Assembly: GCA_965216755.1 (NCBI GenBank)
Contig: CBDCGL010000011.1
Location: 4,544,001-4,608,000, forward strand
Length of the DNA stretch: 64,000 bases
From: Alphaproteobacteria bacterium
GTDB taxonomy: Bacteria; Pseudomonadota; Alphaproteobacteria; UBA7887
Direction of reading: 5' to 3'
The position numbers were made by a program, and so were the translations under genes. Under the pieces are notes generated by a model. The model saw nothing but the letters and a program-made list of their open reading frames with translations. It did no database searches and had not been told where the DNA came from. Of the stretch, positions 37,143-46,535 are shown in pieces (within the stretch, counting starts at the first letter, position 1; each line of letters starts with the position of its first letter).

Positions 37143-37886
37143 ATGAGCCGTAGATCCGCGCGCTATCGGCGCGCGGTTTATGTGTGGCACCGGCGGCTTG
37201 GCCTGTGCGCGGCCGCCGTGTTGCTGGTCGTTGCAGTGACGGGTGTGATCTTGAATCACAGCGACCGACTGGGCTTGGCTACACAAACAGTCAGTTGGTC
37301 GCATCTGTTCACGGTCTACGGTATGACCGATGGCGGGCCGACCATAAGTTATCACCTTGATTCAACATGGTTAACTTGGCACGACCAGGCACTTTATATC
37401 GACGGTCGACCGTTGAGTATTCGCCTGAATGACCCAACCGGCGCCGTGGCCACGGCAGATTTTTTCGTTGTCTCGGGCGACAAAGAACTGCTCTTGTTGG
37501 ACCCCGATGGCGTTCTGATCGAAAGGATTTCGGGCGCTGGGCTACCGACTCTGCCGAGCCGCCTTGGTCTTGCCGTTGGCGGCGAGGTCGCGCTCTCCGA
37601 CGGTGGGACCACATATCTTGCCGATGCAGATCTTTTGACTTGGCGTCGTTGGCCGAATGCCGACGTCGTGTGGAGTACGTCAAAAGCTGCGCCTGACACG
37701 TTGGCGGATGCGGTTGCCAAGCATCGCTACGGCGATGGTTTGAGCTGGGAGCGCGTTTTGCTTGATTTGCACAGCGGTCGCTTGTTTGGGTCGCTGGGGC
37801 CCTATGTTGTCGATGCGGCCGGACTTGGAATCGTGATTCTTATCGTGACCGGCGCTTACAACTGGTTCGTGCGGCGCGGGCGATGA
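37143..37886 (+). CDS. PepSY-associated TM helix domain protein
   Basis: WHRRLG...VTGVILNH and LDLHSGR...TG motifs. Confidence 0.8.
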   Translation: MSRRSARYRRAVYVWHRRLGLCAAAVLLVVAVTGVILNHSDRLGLATQTVSWSHLFTVYGMTDGGPTISYHLDSTWLTWHDQALYIDGRPLSIRLNDPTGAVATADFFVVSGDKELLLLDPDGVLIERISGAGLPTLPSRLGLAVGGEVALSDGGTTYLADADLLTWRRWPNADVVWSTSKAAPDTLADAVAKHRYGDGLSWERVLLDLHSGRLFGSLGPYVVDAAGLGIVILIVTGAYNWFVRRGR

Positions 37887-37914
37887 GCGGTGCAAGTAAA
37901 AGCGCGCTCGAAAA

Positions 37915-38225
37915 TGGTGCCGCCGGCGTGAATTGAACACGCGACCCCACCCTTCATACCACGATCACTTTCGTAACCCCGGCGATCCACTGATCACCAG
38001 GTTCGTGGCCTGGACCATCCCTTAGCCGTATCGCCCGTGTGGCGACTTAGGCTCCGCCCGTCTGGCCTCTACACCTTTCCGGCCATCTGCCGGACTTGGC
38101 TCGGGATTGCCATGGGCCGTGTGGCCGTTAGGTTTCCCCGACTTTGAGCGGTACTGTCCCACCGGTTTTCCGATGGGTGGGCAAGTGATTACCAAGGGTG
38201 TGCTCTACCCCTGAGCTACGGCGGC
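37915..38225 (-). tRNA. tRNA-Thr(GGU), intron-containing
   Basis: 5' exon 38225-38191 (GCCGCCGTAGCTCAGGGGTAGAGCACACCCTTGGT) plus 3' exon 37954-37915 (AAGGGTGGGGTCGCGTGTTCAATTCACGCCGGCGGCACCA) join to a fully paired 75-nt cloverleaf with encoded CCA. Confidence 0.95.
37955..38190 (-). ncRNA. Group I intron (IC3-like), 236 nt, no ORF, inserted between tRNA positions 36 and 37
   Basis: 5' splice site after U and terminal omega-G. P1 GGUAA-UCAC-UUGCC has a U.G wobble at the splice site. Core elements P AAAGUCGGGGAA, Q AAUCCCGAGC, R GUAGAGGCCAG and S AAGGGAUGGUCC; P2-P9 helices are identifiable. Confidence 0.93.
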
Positions 38226-38412
38226 ACATAAATGTTTGCGTACCCGGCGACCGCAAGAAGACGCATCGTCGAGTTAAAGGGACAGTGCCATACGCGCGGA
38301 ATCGGCGCAAGATCCACACGACGTTGGCTGCCATCACAGCGACAAAACTTGACTCAAGTGCGATGAGACGCAATGTGATTCAGGGAAGATAGATCGAACG
38401 AAGGCAAATCCA

Positions 38413-38625
38413 ATGGCCAGTGAAGTGGAGTCGATCTACAGGGTGGCGCCGGTGTCGGCGGGCGTGCGAAGAAGCGCGCGCCAACAGCGACAGGCCGAGC
38501 AATTGCGCGAGAATTTGCGGAAACGTAAGGCTCAGCAGCGGGCCCGCGCAGAGGCTGAGGCACGCAAGGCGTCGGAAAACGACGAGCCTGTAGGCGAAAA
38601 GCATTTGGCGGATATCGAGGTCTGA
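38413..38625 (+). CDS. Small basic hypothetical protein upstream of murA
   Basis: LRENLRKRKAQ motif, typical of this alphaproteobacterial position. Confidence 0.6.
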   Translation: MASEVESIYRVAPVSAGVRRSARQQRQAEQLRENLRKRKAQQRARAEAEARKASENDEPVGEKHLADIEV

Positions 38626-38869: not shown

Positions 38870-40171
38870 GTGGACCGAATTCGTATACGCGGCGGCCAGC
38901 CGTTGCAGGGCACGATCTCGATTGGTGGCGCAAAAAACGCGGCGTTGCCATTGATGGCGGCCACGTTGCTCACCGAAGATATGCTGACCCTCGATAATTT
39001 GCCGCATGTCGCGGATATCGCGACCATGACCGAACTTTTGGTCCAACTTGGCGTGTCGGTTCACATGAACGGCGGCTACGGGCGGACCGAGGATGGCAAT
39101 GGCAGTGCCGAGGGGCGCATGTTGGGCTTGAGCGCCGCCGATCTCATCAACCACACCGCCCCATATGACTTGGTTCGCAAAATGCGGGCCTCTGTATTGG
39201 TTTTGGGACCGCTGCTCACGCGGTTGCGGCGGGCGCGCGTGTCTTTGCCGGGCGGCTGTGCCATCGGACCGCGACCGGTTGACCTGCATCTCAAGGGCTT
39301 GCAGCAGATGGGTGCCGAAATCACGCTCAATGACGGCTATATCGATGCCTCCGCGCCCAGAGGCTTGACCGGTGCCCACATTGCGTTGCCGTCAGTATCG
39401 GTCGGCGCCACAGAGAATTTGATGATGGCCGCGGTCCTGGCCGACGGCGTCACAACGATCGCCAATGCCGCGCGCGAACCAGAGGTCCAAGATTTGGCCA
39501 ATTGTTTGGTCGCCATGGGCGGACAGATCACCGGGATTGGTTCCGATACCTTGGAGATCACCGGCGTGCCACGTCTGACCGGCGCGCAGTATCGTGTCTT
39601 GCCCGATCGTATCGAAACCGGGACGTACGCCATCGCCGCAGCGGTTACCAACGGCGACGTCGAGCTGCTCAATACGGATCTAGACCTGATTGATGCGGTC
39701 GCCGAGAAGCTCACCGACGCGGGAATCCGGCTGACACCCACGGCGCGCGGATTCCGGGTGCGGCGCGACCACCCGCGGATTCGCGGAATAGATTTGATCA
39801 CACAGCCATTTCCGGGTTTTCCGACCGACATGCAGGCACAAATGATGGTTTTGTTGACCGTTGCCGATGGCGCGTCGCTGATCACCGAAACAATATTCGA
39901 AAATCGCTATATGCATGTGCCGGAATTGACACGCATGGGCGCGAATATCACGGTTCACGGCGCCTCGGCGATGGTGCGGGGAACTGACAAGCTGACCGGC
40001 GCGCAAGTGATGGCGACCGATTTGCGTGCCAGCGTATCCCTGGTCTTGGCTGGCTTGGCGGCCGATGATGAAACGGTCATCAACCGGGTGTATCACTTGG
40101 ATCGCGGCTATGAGCGTGTTGAAGAAAAATTGGCCGGGTGTGGCGCCGACATCGAGAGATTGGTCGGCTAA
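38870..40171 (+). CDS. murA: UDP-N-acetylglucosamine 1-carboxyvinyltransferase
   Basis: [37 protein letters not shown] and HLDRGYE. Confidence 0.97.
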
Positions 40172-46459: not shown

Positions 46460-46535
46460 GCCCAGGTAGCTCAGTTGGTAGAGCAGTGGACTGAAAATCC
46501 TCGTGTCGGTGGTTCAATTCCTCCCCTGGGCACCA
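46460..46535 (+). tRNA. tRNA-Phe(GAA)
   Basis: 76-nt cloverleaf GCCCAGG...CTGAAAA...TTCAATT...CCTGGGCACCA. Confidence 0.95.

Follow-up and report, generated by a model that had tools for sequence, protein, structure and literature searches.

How does a bacterium read the threonine codons ACC and ACU when standard gene finders return no tRNA-Thr(GGU)? The question is raised by a 64,000-nt stretch of an alphaproteobacterial genome (GenBank assembly GCA_965216755.1, contig CBDCGL010000011.1, positions 4,544,001 to 4,608,000), hereafter the window. On its minus strand, from 38225 to 37915, lies a tRNA-Thr(GGU) gene that is split after U36 by a 236-nt group I intron (38190-37955). With high confidence we assign this element to the small group I introns of bacterial tRNA anticodon loops that lack an endonuclease; it is inserted between nucleotides 36 and 37 of the only Thr(GGU) gene of the genome. 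A first-pass annotation, made from the letters of the window, had proposed a group I intron at position 36/37 of tRNA-Thr(GGU), and covariation together with a match to a covariance model now bears this out.

When introns were allowed, ARAGORN called tRNA-Thr(ggt) at 38225..37915 on the minus strand, with 75 bases including an encoded CCA, a 236-nt intron and the junction ttggt/aatcac...ggtatg/aaggg (here and below slashes within sequences mark splice sites, and all parts of the gene are on the minus strand). The 5' exon (38191..38225, 35 nt) contains the acceptor and D arm along with the 5' part of the anticodon stem and loop up to U36, and the 3' exon (37915..37954, 40 nt) runs from A37 to the encoded CCA. 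When the exons were joined by their coordinates, default ARAGORN returned the same perfect 75-base cloverleaf with its encoded CCA. The computed splice and the intron-mode call agree with the anatomy first proposed, in which halves of 35 and 40 nt form a perfect tRNA-Thr(GGU) around 236 nt that follow U36 and end in G. In the intron-less Thr(GGU) genes of relatives the two halves are contiguous. Since the intron, whose first base is the A at 38190, and the 3' exon both begin with AA, three cut positions are possible, and the cut was placed after U36 because only this position gives a U at -1 and a G at the intron 3' end. This terminal (omega) G is at 37955, and a terminal G is found in all 72 aligned Thr(GGU) introns.

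As the first-pass annotation had cautioned, tRNA finders may miss such a gene. Over the whole window, both default ARAGORN and Rfam at gathering scores missed the tRNA-Thr(GGU) gene, with a tRNA-Phe at 46460 as the sole call of the former and the sole match of the latter. The intron mode of ARAGORN is insufficient as proof on its own, since it made 19 intron calls in this one genome. Only a few of these were compared with the plain tRNA listing; two Ile(GAT) calls, with spans of 1100-1317, corresponded to the Ile and Ala genes of that listing.

The evidence that carries the assignment is comparative. Alignment A1 comprised 72 complete Thr(GGU) introns, namely that of the window, that of genome G035 and those of 70 loci from a pattern scan described below. 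The helices of the window were written by hand on A1 and 44 pairs were counted, with shuffling and sliding of the partners as controls. Standard pairs filled 95.8% of the cells across the 72 introns, compared with 83.3 ± 0.4% in shuffled alignments, none of 500 of which reached the observed value, and sliding the partners lowered the paired cells to 25-46%. Changes on both sides of a pair were found in 24 of the 44 pairs, distributed over the paired regions P2, P3, P5, P7, P8 and P9. Covariation supports every helix that varies, the P3/P7 pseudoknot included; P1, P4 and P6 are invariant and carry no covariation information either way. The helices first proposed (P1 from GGU/AA and UUGCC, P3 from CCGCUC and GGGCGG, and P4, P6, P7, P8 and P9) are all present, with covariation where they vary.

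We also built a covariance model of the P3-P7 core (model R1) from 66 other introns, with the window excluded and the five introns with the longest inserts dropped. This model matched the window at 127.7 bits (E 1e-32) over 38158-38010, spanning model positions 1-143 of 143 with no mispair flagged, and in the 5.0-Mb genome the intron of the window was its sole match. The single-sequence fold gave a minimum-free-energy z of -3.86, and none of 200 shuffles was as good.

The 5' splice site is defined by P1 (38180..38193), in which exon residues G34 G35 U36 and intron residues A1 A2 pair with the guide U7 U8 G9 C10 C11. The U36.G9 wobble marks the site in the window, and U.G occupies this place in 72 of 72 Thr(GGU) introns, as do the G-C, G-C and A-U pairs of P1 in theirs. 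For P10, C6 U7 U8 are able to pair with AAG of the 3' exon, the third position being C or U in 51 of the 72. P2 (intron 14-33, 38158..38177) is a hairpin of 8 bp, and all eight pairs change on both sides.

In the core, the P3 5' strand CCGCUC (intron 40-45, 38146..38151) pairs with the 3' strand GGGCGG (intron 132-137, 38059-38054), with double changes in four of six pairs and 99.8% of cells paired. P4 (intron 50-55 with 85-90) surrounds P5/P5a (59-81) at 38101..38141; five of the six P4 pairs never vary and 99.8% of its cells are paired, and one P5 pair covaries (C-G in 49 introns, G-C in 21). P6/P6a (intron 92-117) lies at 38074..38099. Intron positions 97 and 113 are U and A in the window, where the relatives have C (69/71) and G (70/71); we infer a compensatory double change in P6a, at a pair that lay outside the tested structure. 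J6/7 (GUGUAGA) and the P7 5' strand GGCCA (intron 124-128) occupy 38063..38073, and GGCCA pairs with the 3' strand UGGUC (intron 174-178, 38017-38013), which follows J8/7 (AAGGGA). P7 forms the pseudoknot with P3, has double changes in two of its five pairs and is paired in 99.7% of cells. P8/P8a (intron 138-167, 38024..38053) has double changes in three of four P8 pairs, with 100% of cells paired, and carries a CCUAAG...UACGG motif that we take to resemble a tetraloop receptor. The P9 hairpin (intron 213-228, 37963..37978) is capped by a GAAA tetraloop; its six pairs all show double changes and only 76.3% of its cells are paired. A GAAA L9 loop is found in 65 of the 72 introns, that of the window included.

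The element has the features of the small tRNA-type introns, as it lies in the anticodon loop of a bacterial tRNA, is 236 nt long and has no endonuclease open reading frame. That no homing endonuclease is encoded agrees with the first-pass annotation: the intron has a single open reading frame, a purely mechanical one of 57 aa that matches nothing in Pfam, and none of the 72 Thr(GGU) introns is long enough to encode such an enzyme. GNRA tetraloops on L2 and L9 are the peripheral contacts of IC3-type introns; in the window L9 is GAAA but L2 is AAAA. Over the core, BLAST gave 70-83% identity to introns hosted by Leu(UAA) and Arg(CCU), and the tRNA introns of these two hosts are marked IC3 in the intron database cited by Williams 2020 (bioRxiv 10.1101/2020.01.27.920355).

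Comparison with known systems places the intron among relatives that share its scaffold and differ in their aim. The Leu(UAA) intron, whose host is the commonest in the class of the window (23 of 36 places with an intron core), has a homologous core with 71-83% identity over the P3-P7 region among relatives in that class, but is inserted after U34, not U36, and has a GAGU-type guide. The tRNA-Ile(CAU) intron of Azoarcus, the structural reference for small tRNA introns, has the same P2-P9 layout with tetraloop-receptor contacts. It differs from the intron of the window in host and guide, and the L2 loop of the window is AAAA, not GNRA; Azoarcus was compared by description only. Its insertion site is the same 36/37 position ('Ile2.5Ug' in Williams 2020).

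The Arg(CCU) intron of the Agrobacterium type, represented by BbgpI of Bartonella bacilliformis, likewise interrupts its host after nucleotide 36 ('5Ug' in Williams 2020). It resembles the intron of the window in its U.G wobble, its terminal G, its size near 200-250 nt and the absence of an endonuclease gene, and also in its bacterial class, its sporadic distribution and a host tRNA missed by standard annotation (PMC7717549). Members in the class of the window (L149, L157, L160, L161) have 72-75% BLAST identity to the core of the window. They differ in host tRNA and guide, AUUGGG pairing with CCU where the UUGCC of the window pairs with GGU, and in the full-intron tree a 95/92 branch separates the Arg(CCU) introns from every Thr(GGU) intron.

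Is the intron intact, and does it splice? Several observations weigh against this. The search with RF00028 (Intron_gpI) that the first-pass annotation had proposed did yield a group I match, covering 38151-38054 and model positions 50-157 of 253 (P3 through the P3 3' strand), but in a permissive search of 551 nt its score was no more than 21.9 bits, where the gathering score is 50. The pattern used to choose 70 of the 72 aligned introns already prescribes some of P4 and J3/4, so invariance there is partly a product of selection, and the outermost P9 pair fails in 58 of the 72. The L2 loop (38169-38166) reads AAAA in the window and GAAA in 71 of 71 relatives. Given the tetraloop-receptor contacts of small tRNA introns, AAAA in L2 could weaken folding. 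Seven sequencing runs were listed, and none was used as evidence; the three labelled as RNA (4% of sampled words) cover only the two exon halves within 37700-38500. A joint in run X3 that skips the 236 nt, carried on a 2,817-nt contig, was rejected as spliced RNA: its flanks are unlike those of the window, so that it is an intron-less Thr(GGU) gene of another organism.

As to the AAAA itself, it is either a natural variant or a base error. Run X4, which contains 77% of the sampled words, has no contig there, its contigs ending inside the intron.

The altered loop, unique among the 72 introns, would suit a decaying relic that no longer splices, in which case the gene would be a tRNA pseudogene and ACC and ACU would be read by another tRNA-Thr; the lack of splicing evidence in the RNA-labelled runs and the RF00028 score below its gathering threshold point the same way. 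The remainder of the element does not look decayed, however. The window has the consensus letter in 106 of 110 columns with conservation of 90% or more among the 71 other introns. The four deviations are an exon column, two columns that read as the compensating U-A pair of P6a, and the L2 tetraloop's first letter. Both halves of the tRNA are perfect, and the match to the model of other introns is full-length and free of mispairs.

The need for the tRNA argues in the same direction. Plain ARAGORN listed 52 tRNA genes in the source genome, including Thr(UGU) and Thr(CGU). The first-pass annotation had asked for a second, intron-less Thr(GGU) gene to be looked for; none is present among these 52 genes, and BLAST of the genome found no other copy. 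In 826 long open frames ACC accounts for 42% and ACU for 8% of threonine codons, together 50%. Similarly, the interrupted gene is the only Thr(GGU) match in all four other carriers examined (G035, G141, G296, G411). Given a sole Thr(GGU) gene and the share of ACC and ACU codons, the intron of the window very probably splices, to judge from its sequence and setting, and we consider a dead relic extremely unlikely. This argument assumes that tRNA-Thr(UGU) is poor at reading ACC, which is accepted for most bacteria; the assumption is a further point to be set against it.

A second alternative accepts removal of the intron in vivo but assigns it to a protein helper, the RNA being inefficient alone since the L2 tetraloop contact is lost. 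The AAAA in place of GAAA would fit this, and the portion of PMC7717549 available to us cites a review that presumes group I introns to need protein cofactors to some extent in vivo. Against it, the remaining core and peripheral elements are intact, the L9 GAAA included, and no candidate maturase is encoded in or beside the intron. [quoted passage not shown] We therefore regard dependence on a helper as improbable, though less so than decay, and favour an intact intron that splices.

The route of such splicing can be modelled on the established group I pathway. The precursor tRNA would be transcribed with the intron included, and the guide UUGCC near the intron 5' end would form P1 with exon GGU and the first two intron bases, the U36.G9 wobble marking the cut. 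Free guanosine bound in the P7 pocket would attack after U36. The terminal G236 would then take the P7 pocket, and the freed 3'-OH of U36 would attack after G236, so that ligation of CUUGGU to AAGGG would restore the anticodon loop. Catalysis and in vivo splicing are here inferred, as is the route of arrival discussed below, whereas the anatomy and the covariation of the fold are observed.

How widespread is the Thr(GGU) intron? We scanned one genome per species, for 185,579 species, with a pattern that combined the end of the anticodon loop of Thr(GGU) with the conserved J3/4-P4 motif. This returned at least 114 loci. Among the matches listed, 70 contain a complete Thr(GGU) gene that is interrupted at 36/37 by 194-342 nt of intron; two more have a Thr 5' exon cut by a contig end, and 42 are unrelated chance matches. 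A Thr(GGU) intron at the same site is hence found in at least 72 other species-level genomes, and the arrangement CUUGGU/A...G/AAGG holds in 72 of 72 complete genes. Of the 70 named carriers among the matches listed, 61 are Alphaproteobacteria and six Pseudomonadota, with one each from Chloroflexia, Bdellovibrionia and Acidimicrobiia. These last three (L030, L084 and L115, from Chloroflexia, from Micavibrio, ranked under Bdellovibrionia by NCBI, and from Acidimicrobiia) are all metagenome bins, and either misbinning or transfer across phyla could account for them.

In 400 other genomes of the class of the window, the intron core was found at 36 places in 33 genomes, with Leu(UAA) as host at 23, Arg(CCU) at four, Lys(UUU) at four and Thr(GGU) at three, and two places uncalled. 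Of the uncalled places, that in G411 proved to be a Thr(GGU) gene lying across two contigs, which makes four Thr(GGU) carriers if it is counted. With the source genome included, Thr(GGU) and Arg(CCU) each occur in four of 401 genomes (five for Thr with G411). The first-pass annotation had taken Thr(GGU) for an apparently new host; this is not supported, since an intron at this site of this tRNA occurs in at least 72 other genomes at species level and in three of the 400 class genomes (four with G411). Its claim that the guide is matched to the Thr anticodon fared better: UUGCC is found in 72 of 72 Thr(GGU) introns, and other hosts have their own matched guides, AUUGGG in five of five Arg(CCU) introns, UAUGCG in one Thr(CGU) intron and, in the Leu(UAA) and Lys(UUU) introns, GAGU-type guides that fit CUU.

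The Thr(CGU) intron with the guide UAUGCG (L023, G012:C89) is a group I intron of 230 nt at 36/37 of its host, in a genome that belongs to the window's own family; its branch is very long, and it falls apart from the Thr(GGU) introns. Among the Lys(UUU) introns, L021 (G033) is inserted at CUU/UUAA and L159 (G379), L172 (G080) and L174 (G251), all of family f59, at CUUU/UAA. These four make up a 100/100 clade that lies within the Leu(UAA) introns. The f59 Lys(UUU) genes were miscalled Arg(tcg) or Tyr(gta) by ARAGORN. Leu(UAA) intron genes were similarly mislabelled as Phe(gaa), Ser(tga) or Arg(gcg) (L003/L141, L140, L142, L143, L169, L170), because the intron mode of ARAGORN shifted the boundaries; the exons show CUU/AAAA loops.

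Of the classical hosts named by the first-pass annotation, Leu(UAA), Arg(CCU), fMet and Ile are indeed those stated in Williams 2020 (bioRxiv 10.1101/2020.01.27.920355), where the last is given as Ile2; the annotation had named Leu(CAA) in addition. That study reported 5,292 group I-split tRNA genes in 80,413 bacterial genomes, 34.8% of them outside the four classical settings, and raised the number of tRNA settings from 4 to 21. It noted that the Rfam seed contains no bacterial sequence and applied a cut-off of 18-20 bits within an ARAGORN split-tRNA call (tFind / gpI_bact_tRNA). At 21.9 bits the gene of the window would pass this pipeline, as would its many relatives, so Thr(GGU) is very probably among its settings and may well be listed in its table, figure or supplement.

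Full-text literature searches brought up no paper in which a Thr(GGU) group I intron is named, with the proviso that the image table, Fig. 3 and the supplements of Williams 2020 may list one. tRNA-Thr is not mentioned in the running text of Williams 2020, nor in PMC7717549 or PMC3984707. The group I intron passages of PMC4090602, PMC2686568, PMC8450103, PMC5733544 and PMC11915505 name no Thr host, no Thr-specific search having been made of these papers. The intron of the window represents a kind of element already known; its host, Thr(GGU), is common among the carriers in public genomes though little described, and in all probability is no new one. It is a tentative and rather doubtful proposition that the Thr(GGU) 36/37 intron is a distinct lineage unnamed in print, about as common in the class as the Arg(CCU) intron and sole-copy in the carriers checked.

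How did the intron reach this gene? An empty site is observed in close relatives. Within the window's own family, ten genomes have an intron-less Thr(GGU) gene (nine by ARAGORN and G013 by reading the junction), and none of the 22 genomes searched has a Thr(GGU) intron. The gene is intron-less at 15 of 16 relatives' loci, and in G013 as well. An EPSP-synthase-family gene adjoins tRNA-Thr(GGU) at 14 of 19 loci, with the intron present or not, and in 27 of the 70 named carriers. This neighbour, which is conserved beside tRNA-Thr(GGU) in many Alphaproteobacteria, suggests that a resident gene was invaded and not that a foreign tRNA gene was imported. In the window the tRNA gene is flanked by the EPSP-synthase-family gene (38870-40171, plus strand) and by a gene for a PepSY-associated transmembrane protein (37143-37886, plus strand); the best matches of the neighbouring protein reach up to 65% identity and, like the intron relatives, point to Alphaproteobacteria.

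In the full-intron tree, the 74 Thr(GGU) rows lie together on one side of the 95/92 branch, a result that depends on the guide and P2 columns. The window itself belongs to a starred clade made up solely of Thr(GGU) rows, with 13 rows at 95/90 when the guide columns are kept and 12 rows at 96/89 when they are removed. Rows L147, L151, L156 and L023, which have no landmark motif, were dropped from both reduced-column trees. Without the guide columns the Thr(GGU) label needs five changes, and an approximately unbiased (AU) test does not reject a single clade (p = 0.339); a tree without P1, P2 and the last 8 nt gives eight changes, of which the starred branches force at least two. The trees are compatible with one origin of the Thr(GGU) lineage and with several.

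The first-pass annotation had envisaged an Ile/Arg-type intron newly retargeted to Thr(GGU) in this lineage, by guide mutation and reverse splicing. In its favour, the guide fits the anticodon while the Arg(CCU), Thr(CGU), Leu(UAA) and Lys(UUU) relatives have correspondingly different guides, and there is no endonuclease gene. The five or eight changes required once the guide columns are removed would also allow several retargetings within the family. A retargeting in this lineage is nevertheless hard to reconcile with the position of the window, which nests within starred all-Thr(GGU) sets with and without the guide columns and has nearest rows that are all Thr(GGU). The Thr-aimed form already occurs in at least 72 other genomes, and the AU test does not reject a single Thr(GGU) clade. 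In addition, reverse-splicing mobility is described as lacking direct experimental support in a 2014 review (PMC3984707). Local retargeting accordingly appears very unlikely.

Given its nesting with or without the guide columns, the intron would instead have arrived already aimed at Thr(GGU). Most likely it entered the resident tRNA gene by horizontal transfer with no fresh change of the guide, and its spread may have proceeded by reverse splicing or by recombination at the tRNA locus. It tells against this account that the nearest sampled intron is only about 77% identical, so that no donor is pinpointed.

If the distinct-lineage proposal is true, the Thr(GGU) intron, together with the Thr(CGU) intron and the two-subsite Lys(UUU) introns, would document repeated natural re-aiming of one ribozyme scaffold, and the copy in the window would then represent a naturally mutated L2 tetraloop, with AAAA in place of GAAA, in a ribozyme that must still work. 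The 72 Thr(GGU) introns and their Arg(CCU), Thr(CGU), Lys(UUU) and Leu(UAA) relatives provide a comparative set for guide re-aiming and for tolerated peripheral damage. Among the tRNA hosts of small group I introns, whose number is growing, Thr(GGU) is a further well-supported case. The locus also shows an essential-looking tRNA gene overlooked by default ARAGORN and Rfam, and automated annotation would probably present this and dozens of other alphaproteobacterial genomes as having no decoder of ACC and ACU.

A scan for promoters and terminators near the gene returned no promoter-like site and two terminator-like sites, both on the plus strand, opposite to the gene, with 1.0 expected. Elsewhere in the source genome, ten small contigs (C1-C10, 4-26 kb) have a G+C content of 0.53-0.69, compared with 0.59 on the 4.85-Mb main contig, and may be mobile elements, repeats or contamination; contig C7 has a second tRNA-Ser(cga). 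ARAGORN further reported two 'tRNA-???' genes whose anticodons have only two letters, as well as a tRNA-Val(tac) of 95 nt, these odd calls being at C10 16354-16439 (minus strand), C11 2412911-2412985 (plus strand) and C11 202542-202636 (plus strand).

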